A stretch of 46,504 nucleotides of DNA. It comes from Actinomycetota bacterium (lineage in GTDB: Bacteria; Actinomycetota; Thermoleophilia; Gaiellales; Gaiellaceae). Numbering within the stretch: position 1 is the stretch's first letter; each line of letters begins with the position of its first letter. The notes beneath the pieces were generated by a model. The model was not told the DNA's origin. It was given only the letters and a program-made list of their open reading frames with translations, and searched no databases. The DNA lies in the NCBI GenBank assembly GCA_046727515.1, contig JBKPCT010000072.1, forward strand, positions 1 to 46,504, in the 5' to 3' direction. The position numbers and the translations under genes were made by a program. Shown here piece by piece: positions 11,371 through 25,388 of the stretch.

Positions 11371-11480
11371 GACGCCCTGTGTCAACAGGGCGTCTCACGC
11401 GGAAGGGGTGCCGGGGGAACCTTAGGTTCCCCCGTGCGCGGCGTCGCGGCTCCGCCGCGGCGCTGCGGGAGAAGCCGTGA
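11367..11480 (+). repeat. intercistronic three-hairpin repeat element, copy A (between ridA and puuE)
   Basis: Hairpin 1: TGAGACGCCCTG/CAGGGCGTCTCA (11368-11397). Hairpin 2: CGGGGGAACC-TTA-GGTTCCCCCG (11412-11434). Hairpin 3 is an imperfect GC hairpin (~11437-11467). The element ends with an SD-like GGGAGAAG plus GTG. It is bounded by GTGA (11367-11370) and GTGA (11477-11480). Confidence 0.8.
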
Positions 11481-12373
11481 GCGCGCGTGACCTCGTCGGC
11501 TACGGCGCCTCACCGCCGGACCCGCAGTGGCCCGGCGGTGCCCGCCTCGCCCTCAGCTTCGTCCTCAACTACGAGGAGGGCGGCGAGCGGACGCCGCTCG
11601 AGGGCGACCCGGAGGCGGAGTCGTTCCTGCACGAGGTCGTCGGCGCGCCGCCGACGGTGGGCCGCCGCAACCTGAACACCGAATCGATGTTCGAGTTCGG
11701 CAGCCGCGCCGGCTCCTGGCGCGTGCACCGGATCTTCACCTCACACGGTCTGCCGCTGACGGTCTACGCGGTCGGCCAGGCCCTCGAGCGGAACCCGGAA
11801 GCGGCAAAGGCGATGGTCGACGCCGGCTGGGAGGTGGCGAGCCACGGCTGGCGCTGGATCGACTACCTGGAGACGCCGGAGGACGAGGAGCGCGAGCACA
11901 TCCGCCTGGCGATCGAGGCGATCGAGCGGTTGTGCGGCCGGCGGCCCGTCGGCTGGTACACGGGCCGGATCTCCGCGAACACCCGGCGGCTCGTCGTCGA
12001 GCACGGCGACTTCCTCTACGACTCCGACTCATACGCCGACGAGCTCCCGTACTGGCTTGAGATCGACGGCCGGGAGCACCTCGTGATCCCGTACACGCTC
12101 GACGCCAACGACATGAAGTTCCTGAGCCCGAACGGCTTCGTCACGGCCGGCCAGTTCCTCGAGTACCTGGTCGACTCCTTCGAGCAGCTCTATGCGGACG
12201 GCGGACGGATGATGAACGTCGGCCTGCACTGCCGGATCGTCGGCCGTCCCGGCCGTGCCCCGGCGCTCGACCGCTTCCTCGCCCATGTGAAGCAGCGGCC
12301 GGACGTGTGGGTGACGACCCGCGCCGAGATCGCCCGCCACTGGCGCGAGCACCACCCGCCGCGTCCGAGCTGA
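11477..12373 (+). CDS. puuE: PuuE-type allantoinase (polysaccharide deacetylase fold, urate catabolism protein)
   Basis: 298 aa. RDLVGYGASPPDPQWPGGARLALSFVLNYEEGGER...SHGWRWIDY...VGWYTGRISANTRRLV...VIPYTLDANDMKF closely follows the PuuE pattern I recall. Confidence 0.85.
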   Translation: MSARDLVGYGASPPDPQWPGGARLALSFVLNYEEGGERTPLEGDPEAESFLHEVVGAPPTVGRRNLNTESMFEFGSRAGSWRVHRIFTSHGLPLTVYAVGQALERNPEAAKAMVDAGWEVASHGWRWIDYLETPEDEEREHIRLAIEAIERLCGRRPVGWYTGRISANTRRLVVEHGDFLYDSDSYADELPYWLEIDGREHLVIPYTLDANDMKFLSPNGFVTAGQFLEYLVDSFEQLYADGGRMMNVGLHCRIVGRPGRAPALDRFLAHVKQRPDVWVTTRAEIARHWREHHPPRPS

Positions 12374-12391: not shown

Positions 12392-13843
12392 TCAGCGGCG
12401 CGGCCGCGGCTTCACATGCAGGAACACCGAACGATCGACTCTGTTGCCGTGAATGTCGACTGCGCGGATGTTGACGCTGTAGTCCCTTGCGATCGCCTTC
12501 GCCAGCGGGACGCGGAACGAGATCCATCCGTCGTATCCGATCCTCGACAGGGGCTGCGCCGTCCGGACCACCCTGAGCCGCCGGTTCGGAGCCTGGCTGT
12601 AGAGCGTCACCGTGAGGCCGACCTTCGCGCCAGTTCCAGAGCGCGACCAGAGCTCGAGCGCCGCGAAGCGGACGAGCGGATACTGCGCGCCGAAGTCGAG
12701 CGTGATCTGCGGCTCGCGCCCGTCGTAGTCGGCTGCTCGCCTGGTGAACGTCGCGAGGGCGGGCTTCTTCGCGCCGTTGCGGCTGACGAGGCCGCTCTTC
12801 CACGCGCTCGTGGGGTCGTCGCGGAGGATGAACCAGATGAACATGTCCACGTTCGGGTCGCCCGCCGCGACGTCGAGCGCGTGCCGGAGATAGGCGGCCT
12901 GCTGCGCACTCGTCACTCCGCCTGCCCTGGCCGGCCTCGTCTGGTAGCCGTACTCGGTGATCCAGATCGGAACCGATTTCCGCTTGAACCACCCGGCGAG
13001 CCTGTCTTCGAACTTGGCCAGGTGCTTGAGCGTCACGTTTGGCCAGCGCACACGCTGGGTCGGCCTCTGCCTCAGGGTGGTCGGGTACGGGTGGTGCGAC
13101 CAGGCGTCGAACTTCAGCCTCGGCTTCTGCTTAGCGAGGAGCCTTGCGAAGTGGCCCGGCGACTCCGTCTCCTGCACGCCTTTCTCTCCGAGGTAGCGGT
13201 CGCGGCCGCGGGCGGACGTCTCGCCGATGCCGACCAGGGCATGCGGGCTGCCAGCCTTGATGCCGGCGTACGCGGCGCGGTAGATCCCCGCGTAGATCTT
13301 GGGCGCGATCGGCCGGCGCGTCCGCGGGTTGTACTGCGGGGAGAGGAACAGCCCGAGGTTCGACTCGTTCCAGACTGTGTAGTAGCGGACGAAGGGATAC
13401 CCCCGATGTCGGCCGGAGTAGCGGTTTGCGAGGGCGTGCGCGAACTTCCGCAGGTCTGCGAGCTTGGTCGGCGCGTGGTTCTGGCCCCTCCCGTGGTTGG
13501 CCCACTTCGGCGTGCCCCAGATCGTCAGCATCACCTCCATCCCATGGAGGCCGGCGTTGCGGACGAATTCGTCGAGGTCCGAGAACCGGTACGCCTTGTC
13601 GAACGGGTTGGCGGCGTTCCGCGGCTTCGTCTCTGCGATGCGCGACCAGTAGACGGTCGTGCGGACGATCCCGGCATGCGCCCGCTGCGCCAGGCGGAAC
13701 GCCCCGGCGCGGTCGGGGCGCCAGCGAAGGGTCGGGTCGTCCTGGAAGCCGACCAGCATCCTCGGCTTCGCGAAGGCCGAGGACGGCGAGAGAACCGCGG
13801 CGAGCACGATTGGGATCAGGGGAAAGAGGAGGCGAAAGCGCAT
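12392..13843 (-). CDS. secreted clan GH-A (cellulase/GH5-like TIM barrel) glycoside hydrolase with C-terminal beta-sandwich-like domain
   Basis: 483 aa. Signal peptide MRFRLLFPLIPIVLAAVLSPSSAFA. YYTVWNESN looks like the acid/base motif and PIWITEYGY the nucleophile motif. The exact GH family is not determinable by eye. Confidence 0.65.
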   Translation of the reverse strand: MRFRLLFPLIPIVLAAVLSPSSAFAKPRMLVGFQDDPTLRWRPDRAGAFRLAQRAHAGIVRTTVYWSRIAETKPRNAANPFDKAYRFSDLDEFVRNAGLHGMEVMLTIWGTPKWANHGRGQNHAPTKLADLRKFAHALANRYSGRHRGYPFVRYYTVWNESNLGLFLSPQYNPRTRRPIAPKIYAGIYRAAYAGIKAGSPHALVGIGETSARGRDRYLGEKGVQETESPGHFARLLAKQKPRLKFDAWSHHPYPTTLRQRPTQRVRWPNVTLKHLAKFEDRLAGWFKRKSVPIWITEYGYQTRPARAGGVTSAQQAAYLRHALDVAAGDPNVDMFIWFILRDDPTSAWKSGLVSRNGAKKPALATFTRRAADYDGREPQITLDFGAQYPLVRFAALELWSRSGTGAKVGLTVTLYSQAPNRRLRVVRTAQPLSRIGYDGWISFRVPLAKAIARDYSVNIRAVDIHGNRVDRSVFLHVKPRPRR

Positions 13844-14416: not shown

Positions 14417-14818
14417 GTGGGAACGCAGACGCAGCCGCTGACCCGCGACCGGCTCGCGGCCCTACCGGACAGCTACTTCAAGGCGGTTGACGCCAAGGAC
14501 GTCGATGCGATCCTCTCGCACTTCGCCGACGACGCGACCATCACCGTCCAGACCGATCACGCCGTGTTCTCGGGCGCCAACGAGATCCGCCGCATGTTCA
14601 CCGACTTCTGCGACCACTCCGTGTCGATCTTCCACGAGATCAAGAACATCGTCGTCGAGCCCGTCGCGGGCAAGGTCGCCACCGAGCAGAGCTACGTCGG
14701 CGAGCTCGTCGACGGGACGAAGAACGACATGCACAACTGCAACTTCTTCGACGTCGACGCGGACGGGAAGTTCACCCGCGTGATCATCTGGATGGCGGGG
14801 ACGAACCCGCTGACGTAA
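14417..14818 (+). CDS. SnoaL-like / NTF2-fold protein
   Basis: ORF 13982..14818 trimmed to GTG 14417, preceded by AAGGAGGAG (14402-14410). 133 aa; [23 protein letters not shown]...[16 protein letters not shown] is a SnoaL/NTF2-like pattern. Confidence 0.75.
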
Positions 14819-14827
14819 CGCCGTCGG

Positions 14828-15025
14828 TCAGCACTCGCTCGGCTCCGGCGAGAGCCGTGCGGGACGGAGGAAAGCCAGCAGCCGCCGGCCGCCCCGCGGC
14901 CGGTGTCCGGTTACGCCGGTCTCCGCGGGCGCTCGCTGCGCCCGCGCCTCGCGCTCGCCGTACAGGCCCATCCGGGCTTCGAGCTCCATCTGCCTCGTCT
15001 CGAACTGAACCACGCTCGGGTACAA
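14828..15025 (-). CDS. hypothetical small protein (65 aa)
   Basis: TTG start preceded by GAAGGAG at 7-nt spacing. GC3-rich codons. Lies downstream of the alpha/beta hydrolase on the same strand. No recognisable family. Confidence 0.3.
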   Translation of the reverse strand: MYPSVVQFETRQMELEARMGLYGEREARAQRAPAETGVTGHRPRGGRRLLAFLRPARLSPEPSEC

Positions 15026-15129
15026 GTTGTCGCTCCTTCGTCTCAGTCAGGGGAATCGGGTAGACGTGCCTTTCTACGGTAGAGGGCACACGCTCTCGCC
15101 GCATCGGCGGCCTCGCCGAATCGAACTGC

Positions 15130-15975
15130 CTAAGCCGCGGCAGTGGAGGCCGCGGCGAGGGCGCGCTCGAAGAACTCGCCGACGATCCGCACCGCGTCCT
15201 GCGGGCACTCGACGAGGTCGGCGTGTCCGATGTCCGAGAACTCGACGAGCTCGATGTGCTCGCTCAGCTCCGCCATGCGCCGGGCGCCCAGCCCGCTCGG
15301 GGCGAGGTCTGGAGGGCAGAGGATGTCGTGCGTCCCGTTCGTCATCAGCAACGGCCGCTCGATCTCCGGGACGAGCGGCGAGAGGTCCATGTTCTCCATC
15401 GCCAGGCACGCCTGCCGAACGGTGAACGGATCGTTGAGCGCGACGATGTCGCGGACGAGCGGGAAGATGTCCGCGCCCTCGGGGCTCTCCATGAACATCG
15501 CGCCCACCGCCTGCGTCGTCACGTGGTCGGAGAACTCGTCCCACGGCATCGCTTCCGCCATTCGCCGCCAGACCCGGAACAGGGTCCGCCGGTAGAGGTC
15601 CGGCTTCGCGAAGGCGACGTCGGCGCAGGCGGCGATCGTCTTCTCCGGGTAAGACGCCGTGAAGGCGATCGCGATCATCCCGCCCATCGACGTTCCGTGG
15701 ACCAGAGCCTGCTCCAGCCCGACGGCGTCGAGGAGCGCCGCAGCGTCCGCCGCCCAGCCCTCGATCGTGTACGCCTCGCGCGGGTGGTCGGAGGCGCCGT
15801 AGCCGCGGGCGTCGAAGGAGAGCAGCCGGTACTTCTCTCGGAAGCCGTCGTTGACGAGCCCGAAGTTGTGGCGGCCGAAGAGCCCGCCGCCGAGCTGCAC
15901 GATCACCGGCACATCCTCCGGGCCTCTCAGCTCGTAGTAGAGCCGAACGCCGTCCTCGATCTGCGCGTAGGGCAC
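15130..15975 (-). CDS. alpha/beta-fold hydrolase
   Basis: 281 aa. Nucleophile elbow HGTSMGG, RLLSFDARGYGASD, and a C-terminal His region SDIGHAD. GTG start 1 nt after the FmdB stop. Confidence 0.88.
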   Translation of the reverse strand: MPYAQIEDGVRLYYELRGPEDVPVIVQLGGGLFGRHNFGLVNDGFREKYRLLSFDARGYGASDHPREAYTIEGWAADAAALLDAVGLEQALVHGTSMGGMIAIAFTASYPEKTIAACADVAFAKPDLYRRTLFRVWRRMAEAMPWDEFSDHVTTQAVGAMFMESPEGADIFPLVRDIVALNDPFTVRQACLAMENMDLSPLVPEIERPLLMTNGTHDILCPPDLAPSGLGARRMAELSEHIELVEFSDIGHADLVECPQDAVRIVGEFFERALAAASTAAA

Positions 15976-15976
15976 C

Positions 15977-16168
15977 CTAGTCCCAGCTCCTGCCGACCCG
16001 GTCCCAGGCGACGTCGCTGGGGAGCCACTCGGTGAAGATCGTCGACCAGAGGCGCTCGACGGACTTCGCGCCGCACCTCGGGCACGGCGGGGTCGGCTTC
16101 GTGGAGGTTGAGAGATACTCCTCGAACCGCTCCTCGCATTTCTTGCACCGGTACTCGTAGATCGGCAT
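15977..16168 (-). CDS. FmdB-family zinc-ribbon putative regulatory protein
   Basis: 63 aa. MPIYEYRCKKCEERFE...PPCPRCGAKS is the CxxC...CxxC FmdB/TIGR02605-type N-terminus. Confidence 0.85.
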   Translation of the reverse strand: MPIYEYRCKKCEERFEEYLSTSTKPTPPCPRCGAKSVERLWSTIFTEWLPSDVAWDRVGRSWD

Positions 16169-16331
16169 GGGCTCGGAGTCTAACCTCGTCTCGGCGCTGC
16201 GGGAACTCGCCCGGCAGCAGGGCGTCGAGCCGACTGAAGAGGACCTCGAGGGTGTGCTCGGCTTTCTCGAGCGGATTCTCCCGGAGCTCGCGGAACTCGA
16301 GGCGCTGCTGCCGCGGGACGCCCCGCTGTGA
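16167..16331 (+). CDS. GatC/AtzG-like small subunit candidate (54 aa), coupled to the amidase
   Basis: Absent from the ORF track (<60 aa). Manual translation gives MGSESNLVSALRELARQQGVEPTEEDLEGVLGFLERILPELAELEALLPRDAPL*. Codons are GC3-rich and the protein is helical and acidic like GatC. Its TGA (16329-16331) overlaps the amidase GTG 16328 (GTGA). Confidence 0.55.
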   Translation: MGSESNLVSALRELARQQGVEPTEEDLEGVLGFLERILPELAELEALLPRDAPL

Positions 16332-17635
16332 GCGTCGCGCGTCTTGCGGAACGCCTCCGCGCCGGTCAGCTGTCAGCCCGGGAGGCGGTCGAGTGGTACC
16401 TCGCGAGAATCGAGGAGCATCACGACCTGAACGCGTACATCACGGTGCTTGCGGACGAGGCGCTGGCGGAGGCCGACGCCGGCCCACCCGACGGCCCGCT
16501 CCGGGGCGTGCCGCTGGCCGTCAAGGACGTGATCGACGTGGCCGGGGTGCGCACGACCGCGGCCTCCGAGATCCTGCGCGACCACGTCGCCGAGCGCGAT
16601 GCCGTCGTCGTCGAGCGCCTACGCGCAGCGGGAGCGATCGTGCTCGGAAAGCTCAACCTCCACGAGTTCGCCTACGGCGCGCTGAGCACGAGCCCGCACT
16701 TCGGGCCGGTCAGGAACCCGTGGGCGCGGGAGCGCGTCGCGGGCGGGTCGAGCGGCGGGAGCGGGGCGGCCGCTGGAGCCGAGCTTGCGGCGGGGACGCT
16801 CGGCACCGACACCTCGGGCTCGATCAGGATCCCGGCCGCGTTCTGTGGCGTCACCGGCCACCGCCCGACGACGGGCCTCGTCCCGAACGTGGGCGTCGTG
16901 CCGGTCGCCTGGAGCTTCGACACCGTCGGCCCGATCGCGCGCAGTGCCGAGGACTGCGCTGTCCTCCTGCAGGCGATCGCGCCGGACCTTGCAGCTCCCA
17001 CGGCCGGCGTCCCACGTATCGGGCTCGTCACGTCGCTCGTCGAGCAGGCCGACTCGGACGTGGCGGCAGCGGCGGAGAGGGCCGCGCGCGAGCTCGGCGC
17101 CGAGCCCGTCGACACGCCCGTTCTCCGTCACGCCGGTGTGATCCAGCAGCTGATGATGCTGCCCGAGGCTGCGGCCGCGCACCTGCCGTGGCTGCAGACG
17201 CGGCTCGCGGACTACGGAGCCGACGTCCGGGCGCGCCTCCTCGCGGGGTTGCTGCTGCCGGCAACGGCGTACCCGACAGGGCTCCGCGCGCGCCGCTGGC
17301 TCGAGGGCGCGATGCGTCCGCTGTTCGAGCGCTTCGACGTGCTCGCGGCACCGACGATGCCGATCGTTCCTCCGCTGATCGGCGAGGACCCGGTCGAGCT
17401 CCGCGGCGAGCAGGTCCCCTACCGGCTGACGCTGATCCCGTTCAACTCGCCCTGGAGCCTGCTCGGCCTCCCGGTGACGAGCGTCCCCTGCGGCTTCGTC
17501 GACGGGCTCCCCGTCGGGCTCTCGTTCGCCGGGCGCCGCGGCGAGGACGCCGTGGTGCTCGGAGCGGCGCGGGCCTTCCAGCACGCGACGGACTGGCACG
17601 AACGGCGCCCGGCCGGAGTCTCTGAGCAAATTTGA
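16328..17635 (+). CDS. amidase-signature (AS) family amidase (GatA/AtzE-like)
   Basis: 435 aa. GVPLAVKDVIDVAGVRTTAAS...GGSSGGSGAAAGAELAAGTLGTDTSGSIRIPAAFCG is the AS Ser-cisSer-Lys signature. Confidence 0.92.
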   Translation: MSVARLAERLRAGQLSAREAVEWYLARIEEHHDLNAYITVLADEALAEADAGPPDGPLRGVPLAVKDVIDVAGVRTTAASEILRDHVAERDAVVVERLRAAGAIVLGKLNLHEFAYGALSTSPHFGPVRNPWARERVAGGSSGGSGAAAGAELAAGTLGTDTSGSIRIPAAFCGVTGHRPTTGLVPNVGVVPVAWSFDTVGPIARSAEDCAVLLQAIAPDLAAPTAGVPRIGLVTSLVEQADSDVAAAAERAARELGAEPVDTPVLRHAGVIQQLMMLPEAAAAHLPWLQTRLADYGADVRARLLAGLLLPATAYPTGLRARRWLEGAMRPLFERFDVLAAPTMPIVPPLIGEDPVELRGEQVPYRLTLIPFNSPWSLLGLPVTSVPCGFVDGLPVGLSFAGRRGEDAVVLGAARAFQHATDWHERRPAGVSEQI

Positions 17636-17651
17636 TGCCGGAGCGGGTAGG

Positions 17652-17661
17652 TTGTATACAA
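17652..17661. promoter_or_regulatory. perfect 10-bp palindrome TTGTATACAA (FadR/GntR-type operator candidate overlapping a TATACA -10-like box)
   Basis: Located in the 58-nt gap between the amidase and the hydantoinase. It fits the t-n-GT-nn-AC-n-a pattern. TTTGAT (17631-17636) lies 18 nt upstream of TATACA. Confidence 0.45.
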
Positions 17662-17693
17662 ACGCCCGTACCTCCGACGAGAGGGGTTCACCC

Positions 17694-19109
17694 ATGTCCG
17701 TTCTGATCAAGGGTGGGCGGATCGTGACGGCCGCCGACGACTACATCGGCGACGTCTACGTCGACAACGGCACGATCAGCCTGATCGGCGAGTCGCTCGA
17801 CCAGCCCGCCGACAAGGTGATCGACGCGGCCGGCAAGTACGTCATCCCAGGTGGGATCGATCCGCACACGCACATCGAGATGTTCTTCGGCGGCACGACC
17901 ACCTGCGACGACTTCACGTCCGGGACCGTCTCTGCCGCGTTCGGTGGGACGACGACGCTGATCGACTTCTGCATGCAGACGCCGGGAACGTCGTTCGCGC
18001 AGGCGCTCGAGAACTACCACGAGAAGGTCGACCGCTGCAAACCGGTGATCGACGTCGGCTTCCACATCGGCGTCACCGACCTCCGCGAGGGCGGGACACT
18101 CGAGGACCTGGCGAAGCTCCCGGACGAGGGCGTCACCTCTTACAAGCTGTTCATGGCCTACAAGGGCGCCGTCATGGTCGACGACGAGACGCTCTTCAGG
18201 ACGATGGAGACGGCGGCCGAGACCGGCGCGCTCGTGATGGTGCACGCCGAGAACGGCGATGCGATCGACGTCATCGTCAAGGAGGCGGTCGCAGAGGGGA
18301 AGAAGGAACCGATCTGGCACGCGCGAACGCGTCCGATGGAGACGGAGGCCGAGGCGACGAACCGCGCCGCGCAGCTCGCACGCGTTGCCGGCTGCCCGCT
18401 GTACGTCGTCCACGTATCGTGCCGGCCGGCGGTCGAGCCGATCGCGCTCGCGCGTGAGAAGGGCTGGAACGTCTGGGGCGAGACTTGCACCCAGTACCTC
18501 TTCATCGACGAGACGGCGCTCGCCGAGCCCGGCTTCGAGGGCGCGAAGTACATCTACACCCCGCCCCCGCGGCCGAAGGAGCAGCAGGAGCATCTCTGGA
18601 AGGCTCTTCAGGCGGACGTGCTCTCGGTCGTCTCGACGGACCACTGTCCGTTCAAGTGGCCCGAGCAGAAGGCGATCAACGGCGAGGCGTTCCAGGTCGT
18701 GCCGAACGGCGGGCCGGGGATCGAGAACCGGCTGCACATGCTGCACGAGTTCGGCGTGCGCACCGGGCGGATCACGCTCAACCGCTTCGTCGAGCTCACC
18801 TCGACCAACGTCGCGAAGCTCTTCGGCCTCTACCCGCGGAAAGGGACGATCGCGGTCGGGAGCGACGCGGACATCGTCGTCTGGGATCCCGAGAAGGCGC
18901 TGACCATCTCCGCCGACTCGCACCACTCGAACGTCGACTACAACCTCTTCGAGGGGACGAAGGTCACCGGTGCGCCGCAGGTCGTGATGGTGCGCGGCCA
19001 AGTGATCGTCGACCACGACGAGCTCGTCGGCGCGCCCGGTGACGGCCACTTCGTCAAGCGGGCGCGGTTCGGCGAGCGGCTGCCCGCAGCGGAGAAGGTG
19101 ACAGTATGA
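17694..19109 (+). CDS. D-hydantoinase / dihydropyrimidinase (cyclic amidohydrolase)
   Basis: ORF trimmed to ATG 17694 (MSVLIKGGRIV...), with GAGAGGGG upstream. PGGIDPHTHIEM metal-binding motif, SYKLFMAYKG (carboxylated-Lys region), MVHAENGD, VVSTDHCPF. Confidence 0.92.
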   Translation: MSVLIKGGRIVTAADDYIGDVYVDNGTISLIGESLDQPADKVIDAAGKYVIPGGIDPHTHIEMFFGGTTTCDDFTSGTVSAAFGGTTTLIDFCMQTPGTSFAQALENYHEKVDRCKPVIDVGFHIGVTDLREGGTLEDLAKLPDEGVTSYKLFMAYKGAVMVDDETLFRTMETAAETGALVMVHAENGDAIDVIVKEAVAEGKKEPIWHARTRPMETEAEATNRAAQLARVAGCPLYVVHVSCRPAVEPIALAREKGWNVWGETCTQYLFIDETALAEPGFEGAKYIYTPPPRPKEQQEHLWKALQADVLSVVSTDHCPFKWPEQKAINGEAFQVVPNGGPGIENRLHMLHEFGVRTGRITLNRFVELTSTNVAKLFGLYPRKGTIAVGSDADIVVWDPEKALTISADSHHSNVDYNLFEGTKVTGAPQVVMVRGQVIVDHDELVGAPGDGHFVKRARFGERLPAAEKVTV

Positions 19110-19273
19110 CCGTCGCTCGCCTACGGCTGACTCCTCCTCGCAGGCTGGGGGAAACCAGGTTTCCCCCACGAGCCCCCTTCTTTCAGAAGCTGAGTTCACA
19201 GGGGAACCTCCCGGTTGTTCCCCTCGGACCCCTCCCCGCTCATCGGACGGAGACCGTCCGATGAGCGGGGAGG
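19110..19273 (+). promoter_or_regulatory. highly structured intercistronic spacer (three hairpins; the last sequesters the start codon)
   Basis: Hairpins: GGGGGAAACC/GGTTTCCCCC (19147-19167), AGGGGAAC/GTTCCCCT (19200-19224), and a perfect 20-bp stem CCTCCCCGCTCATCGGACGG-AGA-CCGTCCGATGAGCGGGGAGG (19231-19273). The last contains ATG 19261 and GGAGG 19269-19273. The spacer is bounded by ATGA (19106-19109) and ATGA (19261-19264). Confidence 0.7.
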
Positions 19274-19914
19274 AAGCACGCGAGGTGTATGCGAAGGCCC
19301 GGCTCGGAGAGAGCGTGACGCTCGGCTCCCGGCCGGCGGTCCTCGTCGTCGACTTCAGCTGCGGCTTCACCGACCCCGAATGCACGCTCGGGTCGGACAT
19401 GACAGATGCCGTCGAGGCGACGAGGCGGGTGCTCGACGCCGCCCGGGAGAGGGGGCTGCCGGTCGTCTTCACGACGATCGGCTACGAGCCGAGCCTGAAG
19501 GACGGCGGCCTCTGGCTCCAGAAGATTCCGAGCCTCGGCGACCTCCAGATCGGCGGTCGCTGGGTCGAGATCGACCCACGGCTCGATCCGCGCGACGACG
19601 AGACGATCGTGCTGAAGAAGGGTGCGTCCGCGTTCTTCGGGACGAATCTCGTCTCCATCCTGGTCACCCAGGGTGTCGACTCCGTCGTGCTGTGCGGGGC
19701 GACGACGAGCGGTTGCATCCGGGCGACCGCGATCGACCTGCTGCAGTACGGCTACCCGACGATCGTGGCCCGCGAGTGCGTCGCCGACCGGGCGCAGGCG
19801 CCGCACGAGGCGAACCTGTTCGACATCGACGCGAAATACGCCGACGTCGTCTCCGTCGATGACGCGCTGGAGTACCTCGAGAGCGTGCCGGGGAAGGTCG
19901 GCGTGGGCCTGTGA
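19261..19914 (+). CDS. isochorismatase-like cysteine hydrolase (N-carbamoylsarcosine amidase / NicF / BiuH-type)
   Basis: 217 aa. D-K-C triad context: AVLVVDF, IVLKKGASAFFGT, LCGATTSGCIRATA. An alternative start is GTG 19285, 8 nt after GGGGAGGAAG. Confidence 0.88.
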   Translation: MSGEEAREVYAKARLGESVTLGSRPAVLVVDFSCGFTDPECTLGSDMTDAVEATRRVLDAARERGLPVVFTTIGYEPSLKDGGLWLQKIPSLGDLQIGGRWVEIDPRLDPRDDETIVLKKGASAFFGTNLVSILVTQGVDSVVLCGATTSGCIRATAIDLLQYGYPTIVARECVADRAQAPHEANLFDIDAKYADVVSVDDALEYLESVPGKVGVGL

Positions 19915-20021
19915 GACGCCCTGTCTCAGGGCGTCTCGCGCGGAGGGGGTGGCGGGGGAACCTTGGGTTCCCCCGTGCTCAGCGGCGCGGCTCTGCCGCG
20001 GCGCTGCGAGAGGATCCGTGA
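19911..20021 (+). repeat. intercistronic three-hairpin repeat element, copy B (between isochorismatase-like and TtuC-like genes)
   Basis: Alignable by eye to copy A over its whole length. GAGACGCCCTG-TCT-CAGGGCGTCTC (19913-19937). CGGGGGAACC-TTG-GGTTCCCCCG (19953-19975). CAGCGGCGCGG...CCGCGGCGCTG, then GAGAGGATCC plus GTG. Bounded by GTGA (19911-19914) and GTGA (20018-20021). Confidence 0.8.
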
Positions 20022-21079
20022 CGTACCGGGTCGCCCTGCTCCCCGGCGACGGGGTCGGCCCGGAGGTGATCGCGGAAGCCCGAAGGGCCCTCGAGGCGCT
20101 CGGACTCCCGCTCGAGTGGACGGAGCTGCCGTGGGGCTCCGCCTACTGGCAGGAGCACGGCCGGATGATGCCCCCGGACGCGCTCGATACCCTCCGCGCA
20201 CACGACGCGGTGCTGATGGGCGCCGTCGGCGATCCGTCGGTACCGGACCACGTCTCGCTGTGGGGCCTCATTCTCGAGCTCCGGCAGCGCCTCGACCTCT
20301 GGGCGAACATCCGCCCGGCCAGGCTGCTCGAGGGCATCCCCTGCCCGCTCGCCGGGCGCGGGCCGGCGGACGTGGACATGCTGTTCGTCCGCGAGAACAC
20401 CGAGGGCGAGTACGCGGGCGTCGGCGGGCGCGCCCACACGGGCCTGGCTTCGGAGGTCGGTCTCGAGACGAGCGTGTTCACGCGCTCGGGAGTCGAGCGG
20501 GTCGTCCGGCACGCGTTCGGGCTCGCGCGGGCGCGGCGCGGCCTCGTCACCAGCGCGACCAAGTCGAACGCCTCGCGGTACGGCTACGTCCTCTGGGACG
20601 AGGTCGCGGAGGAGGTCGCGGCCGCATTCCCGGACGTCCGCTACGAGCGCGTGCTCGTCGACGCGCTTGCCGCGCGGATGGTGCGCGACCCCGCGAGCCT
20701 CGACGTCGTCGTCGGCTCGAACCTCTTCGCCGACATCCTCACCGACCTCGCCGCGGCGATCCAGGGCGGGATGGGGATGGCGGCGAGCGCGAACGTCGCG
20801 CCGGGATCCGACGCTCCGGGGCTGTTCGAGCCGGTGCACGGGTCCGCGCCCGACATCGCCGGCCGCGGAATCGCCAACCCCGCCGGCGCGATCTGGAGCG
20901 CCGTGCTGATGCTCGAGCACCTCGGTGAGGCCGAGGCCGCCGGAGCGCTGATGCGCGCGCTCGAGGACGTCTGCCGCGACGGGCCGAGGACGCGCGACGT
21001 CGGCGGCGAAGCGACCGCGCGCGAGGTCGGGGAGGCGATTGCGGCTCGGGTAGAGGCGTTCAGCGCACGACACCGATGA
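20018..21079 (+). CDS. tartrate dehydrogenase/decarboxylase / 3-isopropylmalate dehydrogenase family (TtuC-like)
   Basis: ORF 19622..21079 trimmed to GTG 20018 (VTYRVALLPGDGVGPEV...). Motifs: MLFVRENTEGEYAG, NLFADILTDLAAAIQGGMGMAASAN, FEPVHGSAPDIAG. Confidence 0.88.
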   Translation: MTYRVALLPGDGVGPEVIAEARRALEALGLPLEWTELPWGSAYWQEHGRMMPPDALDTLRAHDAVLMGAVGDPSVPDHVSLWGLILELRQRLDLWANIRPARLLEGIPCPLAGRGPADVDMLFVRENTEGEYAGVGGRAHTGLASEVGLETSVFTRSGVERVVRHAFGLARARRGLVTSATKSNASRYGYVLWDEVAEEVAAAFPDVRYERVLVDALAARMVRDPASLDVVVGSNLFADILTDLAAAIQGGMGMAASANVAPGSDAPGLFEPVHGSAPDIAGRGIANPAGAIWSAVLMLEHLGEAEAAGALMRALEDVCRDGPRTRDVGGEATAREVGEAIAARVEAFSARHR

Positions 21080-21932
21080 GGGCGCCGCCGGCAACGATCA
21101 GGACGCCGGCGGCGACGAGCCGCATCCCGATCCCTTCCCCGTGGCGGCCGATGAGCAGGAGGGAGAAGACCACCGCCCAGAGCGACTGCGTCGCATTCAA
21201 CGGGGCGACGATCGACACCCGGCCCCTGTCGAACGCCTCCAGCAGACTGTCGTAGGAGAGCCGTAGGAGCACGCCCGCAGCCGCAAATGCGGGCACTGCG
21301 GCACGGAGGTGCCGGCGCGGCGCCTCGCTCTGCGCCACGAGCGTGTACGCGAAGACGACCGCGAAGGCGCCGAGCAGCGCGAGCGCCGAGGCGACGAGCG
21401 GCGGCGGATGCGCGTCGCGGGCGGCCCACCGGGCGACGTTGTCGCGAACGGCAAAGAGTCCAGCGCAGGCGAGCGCGAAGAAGGCGCCGAGGGCGCGGAA
21501 ATGCTCGGGCCGCGACCGCTCCCGGGCCAGGGCGACTCCGCCTGCGACGACGAGTCCGGTCCCGAGCACCAGCAGCGGCTGGAACGGCTCGCCGAGGACC
21601 GCAAGCGCGATTGCCACGGACATCAGCGGCGCGGTGCCGATCAGGATCGACGTCCGCGAGGGACCGACGTCGCGGACCGCGAAGATGAAGAGGATCTGGG
21701 TCGCGCCCGGCACCAGCGCGCCGATCAGCAGGAAGGGCCACAGGTCGGCCGGCCGGACGTCGTCGACGACGATCGACGGGATCGCGACCAGGGCAGCCAC
21801 CACGAATCCGAGGCCGGCAATGACGACGGCGCCCACCTCCGGCTCGCCTCCGCGCTGCAGGCCGCGGCGGACGAGGACGGCGAGCAGGCCGAACAGGACA
21901 CCCGCGACGGCTGCGAAGACGACCGAGGCCAA
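21060..21932 (-). CDS. DMT superfamily (EamA-like) transporter
   Basis: 290 aa with about 10 hydrophobic segments in two EamA-like halves. TTG start. The 3' end overlaps the TtuC-like gene by 20 nt (convergent). Confidence 0.85.
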   Translation of the reverse strand: MASVVFAAVAGVLFGLLAVLVRRGLQRGGEPEVGAVVIAGLGFVVAALVAIPSIVVDDVRPADLWPFLLIGALVPGATQILFIFAVRDVGPSRTSILIGTAPLMSVAIALAVLGEPFQPLLVLGTGLVVAGGVALARERSRPEHFRALGAFFALACAGLFAVRDNVARWAARDAHPPPLVASALALLGAFAVVFAYTLVAQSEAPRRHLRAAVPAFAAAGVLLRLSYDSLLEAFDRGRVSIVAPLNATQSLWAVVFSLLLIGRHGEGIGMRLVAAGVLIVAGGALIGVVR

Positions 21933-21948: not shown

Positions 21949-23853
21949 GTGGCCGGACCGAGGACCCTCACGGAGAAGATCATCGCTGAGCACCTCACAG
22001 ACAGCTCGGCCGAGGAGATCGAGCTTCGCGTCGATCAGATCCTGCTCGAGGACGCCACCGGGACGATGGCGTGCCTCCAGTTCGAGCAGCTCGGGCTCGA
22101 CCGCGTCGCGCTTCCAGCGGTGTCGTACGTCGACCACAACGTTCTCCAGTTCGACAACAAGAATCCGGAGGATCACGCGTACTTGCGCAGCTGGGCCGCG
22201 CGGTACGGCGCCCTCTACTCCCGCCCCGGGAACGGGATCTCGCACTATCTCCACCTCGAGCGGTTCGGCCGGCCCGGGCACGTGCTGCTCGGCGCGGACA
22301 GCCACACGACGATGGCGGGCGCGCTCGGGATGCTCGCGATCGGCGCCGGGGCGACCGAGGTCGCGGTGGCGATGGCAGGGCGGCCCTACCCGGTCGAGCG
22401 GCCGCTCGTCGTCGGCGTCGAGCTCCGGGGGCAACTCCGGCACTGGGTGCAGTCGAAAGACGTCGTGCTCGAGCTGCTGCGCCGCCGCGGCGTTCGGGGC
22501 GGGCGCGGACGGATCTTCGAGTTCCACGGCGACGGCGTCACCACGCTCAGCGCCACCGACCGGGGGACGATCTGCAACATGGTCATGGAGACCGGCGCGA
22601 CGACCGGGATCTTCCCGAGCGACGAGCAGACAGGCGCCTGGCTCTCGGCGCAGGGGCGCGAGGACCAGTTCGTCGCGCTCGCCGCCGACGCCGACGCCGA
22701 GTACGACGAGACCGAGCAGATCGACCTCGGCGAGCTGGAGCCGCTGATCGCGCTGCCGTCCTCGCCAGGGAACGTCGTGCCTGTGCGCGAGGCGGCGGGG
22801 ACGGCGACGCGGCAGGTCTGCGTCGGCAGCTCGGTCAACTCGTCCTACGGGGACCTGGCGCTCGTCGCGGCCGTGCTCCGGGGCCGGTCGCTGCCCGCCG
22901 AGCTCGACCTGACCGTCACGCCCGGCTCGCGGCAGATCCTCGACATGATCGTCCGCAGCGGCGTGTACACGGACCTGCTGGCCGCCGGCGCGCGCATCCT
23001 GGAGCCCGCGTGCGGGCCGTGCATCGGGATGGGCCAGGCGCCGGCGGTCGGCGCGGTCTCCGTCCGCACGTTCAACCGCAACTTCCCGGGCCGCAGCGGA
23101 ACGCCCGGCGACCGGGTGTACCTGTGCTCGCCCGCGACTGCGGCGGCCACGGCTCTACGGGGCGAGATCGCCGACCCGCGCGAGCTCGGCGAGGTACCCG
23201 AGCTGACCCCGCCGCCGCCGAACGCAGAGGTGGACGACGGCCAGATCGTCGCGCCGCCCGACGACGGCCGCGGGATCGAGCTCGAGAAGGGGCGCAACAT
23301 CGTTCCGCCGCCGCCCGTGCCGCCGCTCGCGGAGAAGGTCACCGGGCGCGTATTGATCAAGGTGCCGGACGACGTATCCACCGGCGACATGGCGCCGGAC
23401 GGCGCGCTCGGGCTCGCGATCTGGTCGAACATCCCCGCCTGCGCGCGCTACATGTTCCGCCGCTTCGACCCCGATTTCCCCGCGCGGGCTGAGCAGTGGG
23501 GCGGCGGGATCCTCGTCGGCGGCCACAACTACGGCCAGGGGTCGAGCCGCGAGCAGGCGGCCTTCGCGGCGCTGCACCTCGGCGTCCGCGCAGTCGTCGC
23601 GAAGAGCTTCGCCCGCATCCACCGCGCGAACCTGATCGCGCAGGGGATCGTCCCGCTGACGTTCGCGGACGAGTCCGACTACGACCGCGTCGAGCAGGGA
23701 GACGAGTGGGCGGTCCGCCGCGTGCGCTCGACGGTCGAGTCGGGCGGCACGACCCTGGAGGGGACAGTGCCGCTCGAGGCGCGGCTGACCCGCCGGGAGC
23801 GGGAGATCCTGCTCGCCGGCGGTCTCCTCGCCTACGCGCGCGCGAGCGACTGA
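21949..23853 (+). CDS. aconitase-family hydratase (fused catalytic + swivel domains, ~630-aa bacterial type)
   Basis: 634 aa. GADSHTTMAGALG, ICNMVMETGA and PACGPCIGMG (Fe-S cysteine ligands), then a C-terminal swivel with GGHNYGQGSSREQAA. Confidence 0.88.
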   Translation: MAGPRTLTEKIIAEHLTDSSAEEIELRVDQILLEDATGTMACLQFEQLGLDRVALPAVSYVDHNVLQFDNKNPEDHAYLRSWAARYGALYSRPGNGISHYLHLERFGRPGHVLLGADSHTTMAGALGMLAIGAGATEVAVAMAGRPYPVERPLVVGVELRGQLRHWVQSKDVVLELLRRRGVRGGRGRIFEFHGDGVTTLSATDRGTICNMVMETGATTGIFPSDEQTGAWLSAQGREDQFVALAADADAEYDETEQIDLGELEPLIALPSSPGNVVPVREAAGTATRQVCVGSSVNSSYGDLALVAAVLRGRSLPAELDLTVTPGSRQILDMIVRSGVYTDLLAAGARILEPACGPCIGMGQAPAVGAVSVRTFNRNFPGRSGTPGDRVYLCSPATAAATALRGEIADPRELGEVPELTPPPPNAEVDDGQIVAPPDDGRGIELEKGRNIVPPPPVPPLAEKVTGRVLIKVPDDVSTGDMAPDGALGLAIWSNIPACARYMFRRFDPDFPARAEQWGGGILVGGHNYGQGSSREQAAFAALHLGVRAVVAKSFARIHRANLIAQGIVPLTFADESDYDRVEQGDEWAVRRVRSTVESGGTTLEGTVPLEARLTRREREILLAGGLLAYARASD

Positions 23854-25070
23854 ATCGCGCTCAGGATGATCTCCGCAGCGAGCGCGGCGTCCGCCGGGCT
23901 CGCGTCCTCGGCCGGGTGGTGGCTGATCCCGTCCTTGCAGGGGACGAAGACCATCGCGGTCCGGACGCGACCGGCGACGCACATCGTGTCGTGCGCGGCG
24001 CCCGAGTGCATGCGCATGTACGGCTCGCCCGTCCCCTGTGCCGCGACCTCGAGCGCTGCGACGATCCGCTCGTCCATCGGCGTCGCCGGTAGCGTCTGGC
24101 GTTCCCGGTACTCGGCTGTCATGCCCCGCGCCTCCGCGGCCCTCTGCGCGAACGCGGCAATGTCCCGTGCCACGCCGCGGTAGGCGTCGTCCACCGGCCC
24201 GCGGACGTCGAGCGAGAAGCGGACGCGCGCGGCGATCGCGTTGACGATCCCGGGGTCGACCTCGATCTCTCCGACCGTGCCGACGGTGCCCTGACCGGCC
24301 TCGCGGGCGAGCCGCTCGAGCTCGACGACCGTCTCGGCGAGCGGCAGCGTCGGGTCGAGACGGAAGTCCATCGGCGTGGCGCCGGCATGGTCGCCGCGGC
24401 CGTGGACGGTCACGTCCGCGTGCACGTAGCCGGCGATCGCGGTCACGAGGCCGATCCGGTTGCCGGTGTCCTGGAGCACGCGCGCCTGCTCGATGTGCAT
24501 CTCGATCCAGCCGGAGAGGTCGTCGAGGACGTGCGCGCAATCGCGCCAGCGCTCCGGCGAGTAGCCCGCGTCCGCCGCGCACTCCCAGAAGCTGCGTCCG
24601 TCGTCGAGCGAGCGGAACCGCTCGCGCAGGTCCTCCTCGGACACCTGCTGCGCGATGATCCGGCTCCCGAGCAGCATCTGACCGAAGCCGGAGCCCTCCT
24701 CCTCGAGGAACGAGATCAGTTGCAGCGGCAGGTCGAGTCCCTGCTCCGCGTTCAGCCGGCAGACCTCGAGCGCCGTGGCGACGCCCATCGTCCCGTCGTA
24801 TTTCCCACCGTTCCGGTTGGAATCGCAGTGCGAGCCGACACCGAACACCGGCTCGCCCTTCGGCCGGTTCCGGGCGACGAGCGTCCCGACGGCGTCCTCC
24901 TCGACCTCGAAGCCGAGCGCCTCCAGCTCGCGGACGAAGTAGTCGAGCGTGCGCCGGTAGACGTCGGTGTAGGCGTAGCGGCGGATCGCCTCGTCGGAGA
25001 GCGTGTACTCGCGCCCTGCGAGCGTCTCGATGTCGCGGTCGATCCGCTCTGCGCTCGCCTCCCGGTCCAT
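23832..25070 (-). CDS. M20-family Zn amidohydrolase (allantoate amidohydrolase / N-carbamoyl-L-amino-acid hydrolase, HyuC/AllC-like)
   Basis: ORF 23832..25745 trimmed to ATG 25070 (MDREASAERIDRDIETLAG...). A TAGAGT box lies 7 nt upstream. The alternative start ATG 25100 would overlap the divergent DUF309-like ORF. GSHCDSNRNGGKYDGTMGV, FLEEEGSGFG, MHSGAAHD. Confidence 0.88.
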   Translation of the reverse strand: MDREASAERIDRDIETLAGREYTLSDEAIRRYAYTDVYRRTLDYFVRELEALGFEVEEDAVGTLVARNRPKGEPVFGVGSHCDSNRNGGKYDGTMGVATALEVCRLNAEQGLDLPLQLISFLEEEGSGFGQMLLGSRIIAQQVSEEDLRERFRSLDDGRSFWECAADAGYSPERWRDCAHVLDDLSGWIEMHIEQARVLQDTGNRIGLVTAIAGYVHADVTVHGRGDHAGATPMDFRLDPTLPLAETVVELERLAREAGQGTVGTVGEIEVDPGIVNAIAARVRFSLDVRGPVDDAYRGVARDIAAFAQRAAEARGMTAEYRERQTLPATPMDERIVAALEVAAQGTGEPYMRMHSGAAHDTMCVAGRVRTAMVFVPCKDGISHHPAEDASPADAALAAEIILSAIQSLARA

Positions 25071-25088
25071 CGGCGAGACTCTAGACCG

Positions 25089-25388
25089 ATGGACGAGCAT
25101 GCCGAGTGGCCTCCGAGGGAGGCGCGCGTGCGGGCCGCGGTGTGGCGTGCCGAGGGCCACATCGAGCGTGCGGAGTACGCACAGGCGGCCGCCGCGCTGG
25201 AGGGCGCGTTCGGGCTCGGAGGGGACGAGACGCTCCTCCACGGCCTGCACCACCTGGCCGCGGCGGGCTGGCGCCACCAGCAGAGCGAGCCCGAGCGGGC
25301 GCGCCGCCAGCTCGAGCGCGCGCGGCGACGCCTCGGCCGACGGCAGCGGCGGCTCGTCGCGCTTGTCGAGAGCGACCTCGCCTCGTAG
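25089..25388 (+). CDS. DUF309-like small helical protein (candidate)
   Basis: Tail of ORF 24387..25388 from ATG 25089: MDEHAEWPPREARVRAAVWRAEGHIERAEYAQAAAALEGAFGLGGDETLLHGLHHLAAAGWRHQQSEPERARRQLERARRRLG. Codons are GC3-rich. The pattern resembles DUF309 by eye only. Confidence 0.45.
   Translation: MDEHAEWPPREARVRAAVWRAEGHIERAEYAQAAAALEGAFGLGGDETLLHGLHHLAAAGWRHQQSEPERARRQLERARRRLGRRQRRLVALVESDLAS

Follow-up and report, generated by a model that had tools for sequence, protein, structure and literature searches.

We investigated a cluster of hydrolase genes on contig JBKPCT010000072.1 of a metagenome-assembled genome (MAG; GCA_046727515.1) of Gaiellaceae (Actinomycetota, order Gaiellales). The window is the whole contig (46,504 nt) of this 3.57-Mb MAG, which is 73% complete. 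Synteny divides the cluster into two modules: the genes for an FmdB zinc-ribbon protein, a short open reading frame (mini-ORF), and an amidase-signature enzyme form module 1, and those for a D-hydantoinase-type enzyme, an isochorismatase-fold cysteine hydrolase, and a TtuC-type dehydrogenase form module 2. Our preferred reading, held tentatively and with somewhat less than even weight, is a catabolic cluster, conserved across Gaiellales, whose two co-oriented modules would hydrolyze a hydantoin-, allantoin-, or imide-type ring. This reading is carried by the gene content, the family placements, the conservation and coupling of the genes, and the predicted binding of two subunits. The individual genes had been listed in an initial annotation made from the sequence alone, and all were confirmed in place by third-position GC, translations, and Pfam and NCBIfam matches. 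The cluster is not, however, a copy of the cyanuric-acid AtzE/G/H pathway, on which that annotation had modeled it.

Because the contig has a G+C content of approximately 70%, plain ORF lists are full of false frames, and genes were therefore called by third-position GC. Families were assigned with Pfam and NCBIfam models with curated cut-offs and with PDB sequence searches, and atzD-G-E-H-F reference sequences were taken from plasmid pADP-1. For conservation, 83 loci were retrieved and all window proteins were mapped onto them; 48 belonged to a Gaiellales-type clade (amidase identity 53–86%), of which 45 had enough upstream DNA for counts. Genome-wide searches for absent genes covered this MAG and three related genomes.

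The amidase and its small upstream partner

The amidase gene (16328–17635, plus strand; 435 aa; Pfam Amidase, 5.8e-96) encodes a protein that is 36% identical to AtzE of pADP-1. The triad K66, S141, and S165 was invariant in an alignment of 20 homologs and aligned with the triad of AtzE. In the PDB search, GatA chains covered the N-terminal half (1.9e-66) and AtzE 6c62, deposited under the title "biuret hydrolase", covered the full length (6.8e-59). The best NCBIfam models were two AtzE-family models, both below cut-off (NF006631, 317.4 vs 461; TIGR02715, 304.9 vs 425.75). Two quick IQ-TREE runs, in which other amidase-signature families were thinly sampled and the AtzE clade was represented by three references, placed the enzyme beside and not inside that clade. 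Among 77 sequences, 35 Gaiellales-type amidases (support 100) were sister to the AtzE-family references (support 100) with a Shimodaira–Hasegawa-like approximate likelihood ratio test (SH-aLRT) value of 94, and when the true GatA of the three related genomes was added, the same sister relation was recovered (SH-aLRT 90), with GatA placed elsewhere. The "AtzE-like" label of the initial annotation thus holds as a sister relation.

Reading the mini-ORF and amidase as the housekeeping GatC and GatA of the tRNA-dependent amidotransferase has next to no probability, although JGI labels homologs as amidotransferase subunit A and the MAG yielded no gatA above cut-off and no gatC, its best GatA-like match being the window amidase itself. 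The enzyme scored 258 bits on the GatA model TIGR00132 (cut-off 481), GatA lay far from it in the tree, and gatB was not adjacent. Moreover, each of the three related genomes carried a separate GatA above cut-off (529–553 bits) in addition to an ortholog of the amidase, which already refutes this reading. The missing gatA weighs little in a MAG that is only 73% complete, and the lack of gatA and gatC is most likely an assembly gap. No small partner ORFs were found when the DNA upstream of the paralogous amidases was read.

The mini-ORF (16167–16331, plus strand; 54 aa) is a real gene by several lines of evidence: its third-position GC is approximately 0.9, its protein pattern is conserved in relatives (mean identity 49% in the alignment), and its stop codon TGA overlaps the amidase start codon GTG as GTGA (4-nt overlap). 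An ORF of 54–68 aa ended on the amidase start in approximately 40 of the 45 related loci, and tblastn found it in 39 of the 45. When a profile of the family was searched against 1.84 billion representative proteins, only 93 clusters were recovered, nearly all of 40–70 aa. The mini-ORF and 65 family members had no DUF4089, GatC, or other Pfam match and no NCBIfam match; the profile matched no AtzG or GatC chain in the PDB, and BLASTP against AtzG gave nothing significant. This silence carries little weight because such profiles barely detect genuine AtzG, which scored only 21 bits on the HpxX model (cut-off 70), and a small ORF beside a Bosea RefSeq "AtzE family" amidase matched nothing. Small ORFs were also found upstream of 40–46%-identical amidases in other phyla. 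Compared by HHalign, these matched the Gaiellales mini-ORF set with an E-value of 5e-6 (probability 86%) and the AtzG/DUF4089 set with 2.5e-4 (probability 43%), and the direct comparison of the Gaiellales set with the AtzG set was weak (E 0.014) and in the same register. Two candidate natural fusions of mini-ORF and amidase (P0211 and P0222) proved to be frameshifted gene calls instead.

Co-folding of the amidase and the mini-ORF product, each with its own alignment, gave interface scores (ipSAE, interaction prediction score from aligned errors) of 0.85, 0.83, and 0.85, against 0.00 for the best of three controls. The runs shared at least 97% of contacts, and the predicted local distance difference test (pLDDT) of the partner was at least 84. 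Of 80 solved complexes, 58 reached this mark, as did 2 of 110 mismatched pairs; these counts are rough for this comparison since own alignments were used here. The predicted contact surface on the amidase comprised residues 268–324, a helical region. As AtzEG and GatCAB structures have already been solved, the pass may reflect likeness to them and is no proof of binding, but likeness to AtzEG or GatCAB is the very question that was put to the predicted complex. AtzG itself has no catalytic role; it assembles with AtzE into an obligate heterotetramer, and AtzE depends on it for solubility (PMC6219798). By analogy, we infer that the mini-ORF product is a non-catalytic, solubilizing partner of the amidase. 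It is AtzG/GatC-like in position and predicted binding and an orphan by sequence. The proposal of the initial annotation that a GatC/AtzG-like mini-ORF partners the amidase was therefore borne out by coupling, conservation, and co-folding, and amidase and mini-ORF hold up as an AtzE/AtzG-like two-subunit enzyme with a predicted amidase activity.

On the opposite strand, the zinc-ribbon gene (15977–16168, minus strand; 63 aa, CxxC...CxxC; Zn_ribbon_8, 1e-15; TIGR02605, 60.7 bits vs cut-off 31.3) and the mini-ORF have start codons that interlock as CATG (16165–16170), so that, unless the transcripts are leaderless, each gene must contain the promoter of the other. This divergent gene adjoined the amidase module in 41 of the 45 related loci, even where other neighbors differed, and its product could be a third amidase component or a dedicated regulator. 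An alpha/beta hydrolase gene (15130–15975, minus strand; 281 aa; Abhydrolase_1, 6.1e-15) begins 1 nt past the zinc-ribbon stop codon on the same strand, so both genes are indeed divergent from the amidase, as first noted. The hydrolase had only generic relatives in the PDB (for example, 3-oxoadipate enol-lactonase, 7e-19), and neither NCBIfam nor the PDB pointed to a specific relative such as NicD or RutD. It co-occurred with the hydantoinase: both were present in 22 loci and absent from 15, with 3 discordant.

The hydantoinase, cysteine hydrolase, and dehydrogenase

The hydantoinase gene (17694–19109, plus strand; 471 aa; Amidohydro_1, 6.9e-28) scored 595.3 bits on TIGR02033 (cut-off 393.25) and matched Bacillus D-hydantoinases in the PDB at 2.5e-161. 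The metal-ligand motifs HxH, K, H, H, and D were all readable in the translation, and the start was taken as the ATG at 17694, the TTG at 17652 being less likely. By these matches, the product is a standard D-hydantoinase/dihydropyrimidinase. A hydantoinase followed the amidase in 26 of the 45 loci, so the link of the amidase to hydantoinase and cysteine hydrolase that had been suggested at the outset is a conserved one. A Bosea plasmid was considered as a second amidase–hydantoinase pairing and rejected: the gene after its AtzE-family amidase encodes a TRZ/ATZ-type deaminase instead of a hydantoinase, so the pairing does not recur there.

The cysteine hydrolase gene (19261–19914, plus strand; Pfam Isochorismatase, 4.1e-35) encodes the triad D31, K120, and C152. 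The best structure was 26st, an N-carbamoylsarcosine amidohydrolase (1.1e-61, approximately 48% identity counted from the alignment), followed by 4l07/4l08 (8.5e-54), 3ot4 (7.1e-41), and 1nba (6.9e-37). Of these, 1nba is an Arthrobacter N-carbamoylsarcosine amidase, and 4l07 and 3ot4 we take to be maleamate amidases, which their PDB titles do not say. Among plasmid homologs with 48–50% identity, those from Arthrobacter and its relatives carried the annotation N-carbamoylsarcosine amidohydrolase, and those from Sphingobium the annotation NdpG maleamate amidohydrolase. The initial annotation had compared the protein with biuret hydrolase BiuH; its assignment to the isochorismatase-like fold stands, whereas the comparison with BiuH does not, as BiuH structures matched at only 3.7e-15 and the BiuH model NF050097 gave 57.6 bits (cut-off 370), against 1e-61 to 7e-37 for N-carbamoylsarcosine and maleamate amidases. 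The protein is thus assigned by similarity to the N-carbamoylsarcosine/maleamate amidase subfamily and not to BiuH. Similarity alone cannot choose between these two substrates because both carry a terminal amide or ureide at a distance of three atoms from a carboxylate and so have the same shape.

The closest cultured homologs of the cysteine hydrolase were haloarchaeal (52–54% identity). In plasmid operons of Natronomonas and Halorientalis (L090, 3021–8599; L091, 3047–8678), genes for HyuA, HyuB, an isochorismatase-like hydrolase, and an isocitrate lyase/PEP mutase-family protein stand together. From their families, these operons appear to encode an uncharacterized pathway of ring opening and deamidation. 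They share the logic of the Gaiellales cluster: a ring opener, a cysteine hydrolase, and then an enzyme of organic-acid metabolism.

In the window, the third gene of the module is that of the TtuC-type tartrate/D-malate dehydrogenase (20018–21079, plus strand; 353 aa), which passed the TIGR02089 cut-off marginally (477.4 vs 470.4 bits). Translational coupling links this gene to those for the hydantoinase and the cysteine hydrolase in relatives: in most of them, neighboring genes of the three overlapped by 4 nt or were a few nt apart, with a 4-nt overlap between those for the cysteine hydrolase and TtuC. A literature search returned no paper on the combination of hydantoinase, isochorismatase, and tartrate dehydrogenase.

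The spacing within this module is wider in the window. Between the hydantoinase and cysteine hydrolase genes lies a 151-nt spacer (19110–19260), against −4 to +7 nt in most relatives and 64–156 nt in L001, L043, and L044; it is probably another inserted hairpin element. Additionally, a GC-rich repeat of 95 nt occurs in two copies (11386–11480 and 19927–20021; 88% identical, each ending in GTGA), one between the genes for RidA and PuuE and the other between those for the cysteine hydrolase and TtuC. Since the latter two genes share a 4-nt overlap in most relatives, the element seems to have been inserted into a stop/start junction.

The junction between the amidase and the hydantoinase differs among loci. 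A spacer of 57–86 nt was present in approximately 17 of 28 loci, and the genes were 4–15 nt apart in 8. Most of the longer spacers contained a GTATACA core or a one-base variant, many had TTGAC upstream of it, and they carried the ribosome-binding site GAAAGGGG. In the window, the spacer (17636–17693, plus strand) holds a promoter-like motif of the form TTGAYG, approximately 17 nt, and GTATACA, along with a Shine-Dalgarno site; the TTGACG-like motif, at 17640–17675, overlaps the amidase stop codon. The same motif was found at the junctions of L001, L004, L007, L008, L012, L016, L017, L019, L023, L031, L041, L045, and L046. It looks like an internal promoter, with a −10 region predicted to double as a palindromic operator. 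No plus-strand terminator-like site was found within the operon. We therefore read the cluster as two modules, usually with one direction of transcription, and with an internal promoter/operator in many genomes.

The NTF2-fold protein and the readings of the pathway

The initial annotation had also proposed that an NTF2-fold protein (14417–14818, plus strand; 133 aa; Pfam SnoaL_2, 8.7e-13) completes an AtzE/AtzG/AtzH-like trio. This did not hold. The protein had no match to the AtzH family PF11533 (DUF3225) even at E ≤ 10 and no BLASTP alignment with AtzH, and no PF11533 match occurred anywhere in the MAG or the three related genomes. The AlphaFold2 model from 16 orthologs (pLDDT 90.8) was nearest to ketosteroid isomerase, NsrQ, limonene epoxide hydrolase, and Trt14 (template modeling score approximately 0.8), and no AtzH entry was among the best 50 of at least 500 fold matches. 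The pocket of AtzH is lined by five arginines and includes the required residues Tyr22 and Arg46 (PMC6219798). The protein of the window contains no more than five arginines over its whole length, and most of its invariant residues are Asp, Glu, His, or Asn, a residue-level alignment with AtzH being impossible. Its gene is separated from the downstream mini-ORF by 1.3 kb and two minus-strand genes, is convergent on the alpha/beta hydrolase gene, and was present in 15 of 23 loci with a hydantoinase and in none of the 17 without. Judged by its sequence and model, the protein is of ketosteroid-isomerase/SnoaL type and would have only the NTF2 superfamily fold and size in common with AtzH; its gene is a facultative accessory of the hydantoinase-containing form of the cluster. 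With no link to AtzH or the amidase by sequence, transcription unit, or co-occurrence, only a pair remains of the "trio". The window has 311 nt (14819–15129) between the convergent genes for the NTF2 protein and the alpha/beta hydrolase, compared with approximately 30–40 nt in L001 and L002; a minus-strand ORF in this gap is of low complexity and probably no gene.

The triazine-type steps were likewise sought in the MAG and its three relatives. The searches returned neither an AtzH-like match nor an allophanate hydrolase above cut-off; an AtzD/TrzD-family search was also empty, which is weak evidence as it was silent in control genomes too. A route through carboxylated ureas, as first proposed, is thus not borne out. 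By contrast, several observations favor a ureide pool of hydantoins, allantoin derivatives, and acyl-ureas. A gene resembling hydantoin/allantoin racemases (PDB 3qvk, 4.7e-19; 5lfd, 2.9e-17) stands between the alpha/beta hydrolase and zinc-ribbon genes in seven relatives (L001, at 6891–7634, and L008, L015, L017, L029, L034, and L040), and three to four others had further, more distant copies (approximately 51–59% identity); this MAG yielded none. The same pool is favored by the neighboring PuuE and M20 genes, the other hydrolases of the island, and the link to Hpx proteins: the enterobacterial AtzG/AtzE/AtzH homologs HpxX/HpxY/HpxZ have been tied to oxalurate in purine catabolism (PMC12625717; also by NCBIfam and annotation names), and an oxalurate amidohydrolase function has been ascribed to HpxY, a relative of AtzE (PMC12625717). 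The coupling to TtuC, an aconitase-family gene, and the likeness to maleamate amidases keep a cyclic-imide route alive. Of the earlier idea of ring mineralization, then, a hydrolytic route for a ureide or imide ring remains the best reading, and the triazine-type version through carboxylated ureas falls away.

We infer the substrate, the order of steps, and the link between the modules as follows. Module 1 would provide a heteromeric Ser-cisSer-Lys amidase of the AtzE/AtzG (GatA/GatC-derived) kind, in which the stop/start-coupled, helical 54-aa protein would bind the helical region at approximately residues 268–324 and probably keep the amidase soluble. The binuclear-metal D-hydantoinase of module 2 would open a five- or six-membered cyclic ureide, most likely a 5-substituted hydantoin or an allantoin-like compound and possibly a cyclic imide. 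The Cys-Asp-Lys hydrolase may then act on the linear carboxylate, stripping it of its terminal carbamoyl or amide group with release of NH3 (and CO2), and the TtuC-type dehydrogenase could oxidize the resulting 2-hydroxy acid. The AtzE-like amidase would deamidate a further terminal ureido or acyl-urea group, such as that of an oxalurate-like compound, from the same ureide pool, and the route would not pass through dicarboxyurea and allophanate.

Several points weigh against this scheme. Each of its steps is assigned at the level of protein families, the amidase falls short of every AtzE-family cut-off, and the mini-ORF family lacks a match to any AtzG, DUF4089, or GatC profile. It is not obvious what a TtuC-type enzyme would do if a plain amino acid were formed, and the nearby M20 carbamoylase could already serve the hydantoinase, freeing the cysteine hydrolase for another job. 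Furthermore, the amidase lacked an adjacent hydantoinase in 19 of the 45 loci, so the modules can occur apart; the zinc-ribbon/mini-ORF/amidase unit stood alone in some of these loci, and in seven the order was instead OCD, zinc ribbon, mini-ORF, amidase, cyclase, and M20. A promoter-like motif also intervenes between amidase and hydantoinase in approximately 17 of the 28 junctions. It is on the doubtful side that the cluster goes so far as to encode an undescribed Gaiellales ring pathway, in which D-hydantoinase, cysteine hydrolase, and TtuC act with an FmdB-paired, AtzE-sister amidase that requires the orphan small subunit, and which would be the first AtzEG-type heteromeric amidase outside Proteobacteria, with a new substrate.

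The points on modularity would suit two independent pathways lying side by side, which we consider unlikely. In that case, module 2 would handle hydantoins, pyrimidines, or imides separately, from a promoter of its own, and module 1 would be an HpxXY-like oxalurate or acyl-urea amidohydrolase in an allantoin branch with M20, an OCD-family dehydrogenase, and PuuE. The zinc ribbon is kept in 41 of the 45 loci and the hydantoinase in only 26, the amidases of the seven cyclase/M20-type loci form their own subclade in the tree, and the TTGACG, approximately 17 nt, GTATACA motif in the spacer is conserved. PuuE and M20 pass their equivalog and carbamoylase-family cut-offs, respectively, and HpxY provides an AtzE-related precedent for oxalurate (PMC12625717). 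However, amidase and hydantoinase were only 4–15 nt apart in 8 loci, and no HpxZ/AtzH-like gene was found in the four genomes. In addition, the alpha/beta hydrolase and hydantoinase genes, which flank the amidase module, were gained or lost together (22 both, 15 neither), suggesting one unit.

An imide or maleamate-type route appears less probable again. In this case, the hydantoinase would serve as an imidase for rings of the succinimide or maleimide type, which may bear alkyl or hydroxy substituents; the half-amide would be deamidated by the cysteine hydrolase (and the other regioisomer by the amidase), and an aconitase-type hydratase and TtuC would turn the maleate/malate-type acid into a 2-oxo acid. 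It agrees with a cysteine hydrolase that is approximately as close to maleamate amidohydrolases (NdpG, approximately 50%) as to N-carbamoylsarcosine amidases and with a D-malate/tartrate dehydrogenase equivalog coupled to it in relatives. The fused aconitase-family gene that follows in approximately half of the loci, the haloarchaeal homologs (52–54%) placed before an organic-acid (C–C bond) enzyme in HyuA-HyuB operons, and C5-dicarboxyl-CoA genes in the same island also fit, and a route from hydroxy-imide through half-amide to hydroxy-diacid has reportedly been found in Aspergillus. The racemase-like genes in 7–11 relatives, together with the PuuE and M20 neighbors, instead point to ureides; the aconitase gene is absent from many TtuC-bearing loci, and the hydantoinase is a typical D-hydantoinase equivalog. 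Far less probable than any of these is the original trio, with the hydantoinase in place of AtzD/barbiturase and carboxybiuret-, dicarboxyurea-, and allophanate-like intermediates. AtzE is indeed the nearest characterized relative of the amidase, the small partner ORF is present, and an NTF2-fold gene is nearby. Its AtzH part is largely refuted, however, by an NTF2 protein that is unrelated to AtzH beyond its fold, has only five arginines against an Arg-rich AtzH pocket (PMC6219798), and is encoded in another transcription unit that tracks the hydantoinase and alpha/beta hydrolase and not the amidase. The empty searches of the four genomes, with the AtzD search limited by its silent control, and a cysteine hydrolase that is not BiuH-like further oppose it.

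The surrounding island and comparison with known systems

The cluster is embedded in an island, extending over the contig (1–46504), that is unusually rich in C–N hydrolases and whose gene order is reshuffled among Gaiellales genomes. These include HyuA/HyuB, PuuE, the amidase, the hydantoinase, two isochorismatase-like and two M20 proteins, and products of formamidase-like and cyclase-family genes. Other genes of the island encode RidA, F420-type LLM oxidoreductases, a SARP regulator, an ABC transporter that has two binding proteins, and a CoA-transferase, the last accompanied by C5-dicarboxyl-CoA genes. Upstream of the cluster lie genes for a PuuE-type allantoinase, a conserved neighbor by synteny (11477–12373, plus strand; TIGR03212, 455.8 bits vs cut-off 424.6), and a GH5-like protein (12392–13807, minus strand). 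Downstream, the TtuC gene is convergent with a conserved neighbor by synteny, an EamA/DMT transporter gene (21060–21932, minus strand; Pfam EamA, 7.5e-20). It is followed by genes for the fused aconitase-family hydratase (21949–23853, plus strand; NF005558, 814 bits vs cut-off 612; in approximately half of the hydantoinase-type loci), an M20 "hydantoinase/carbamoylase family" amidase resembling allantoate amidohydrolase (23832–25277, minus strand; TIGR01879, 299 bits vs cut-off 204), and an OCD-family protein (25401–26414, plus strand). The M20 gene travels with the amidase in both cluster layouts.

Gaiellales are abundant and almost uncultured soil Actinomycetota, and the cluster and its island, with more than 10 C–N hydrolases, are conserved in dozens of genomes; together they probably represent a main way in which these bacteria gain nitrogen from ureides or imides in soil. 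The placement of the amidase corrects the automatic "GatA" label of hundreds of metagenomic proteins, the mini-ORF adds an overlooked family of small-protein genes, and the "vestigial transamidosome" architecture of AtzE/AtzG is extended beyond Proteobacteria. The failure of the AtzE/G/H analogy points to hydantoins, allantoin derivatives, oxalurate, and half-amides rather than to triazines.

Compared with AtzE-AtzG, the 1-carboxybiuret hydrolase of Pseudomonas sp. ADP (pADP-1, atzDGEHF), and with HpxX-HpxY, module 1 has in common a Ser-cisSer-Lys amidase (36% identity to AtzE, sister clade), an ORF of 50–70 aa directly upstream whose product is here predicted to bind tightly, and a setting among genes for the catabolism of nitrogen-rich compounds. 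It differs in an amidase below the AtzE-family cut-offs and a small protein unseen by the DUF4089, HpxX, and GatC profiles, and in that AtzH/HpxZ, AtzD (with the search control silent), and AtzF (allophanate hydrolase, sought at its cut-off) were not found. Moreover, AtzE-AtzG belongs to Proteobacteria, whereas this cluster is in Actinomycetota (Gaiellales), with a divergent FmdB zinc ribbon in 41 of the 45 loci and a D-hydantoinase following. With AtzH/HpxZ (DUF3225, PF11533; 1,3-dicarboxyurea amidohydrolase), the NTF2 protein shares the superfamily fold and a similar size only; it is a SnoaL_2 protein with no sequence similarity, a ketosteroid isomerase-like model, and acidic and His-rich invariant residues, and its gene is not downstream of the amidase.

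Module 2 resembles the hydantoinase process and reductive pyrimidine catabolism (PydB/PydC) in its D-hydantoinase equivalog, the racemase-like gene of several relatives, the M20 carbamoylase-family gene nearby, and a downstream enzyme that, by its family, may hydrolyze N-carbamoyl acids. Unlike in the hydantoinase process or with PydC, the gene coupled to the hydantoinase encodes an isochorismatase-fold cysteine hydrolase and no nitrilase-type or M20 carbamoylase, TtuC is coupled as well, and no dihydropyrimidine dehydrogenase of the reductive pathway was seen in the window. The N-carbamoylsarcosine amidohydrolase of creatinine degradation and the maleamate amidohydrolases NicF/Ami/NdpG of pyridine-ring degradation share with the cysteine hydrolase the isochorismatase fold, the Cys-Asp-Lys triad, and approximately 48–50% identity. 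The genomic context differs from that of both pathways: neither a creatinine deaminase nor a 2,5-dihydroxypyridine dioxygenase accompanies the cysteine hydrolase, whose partner is instead a metal-dependent hydantoinase, with an ATP-dependent HyuAB pair 10 kb away in the same island.

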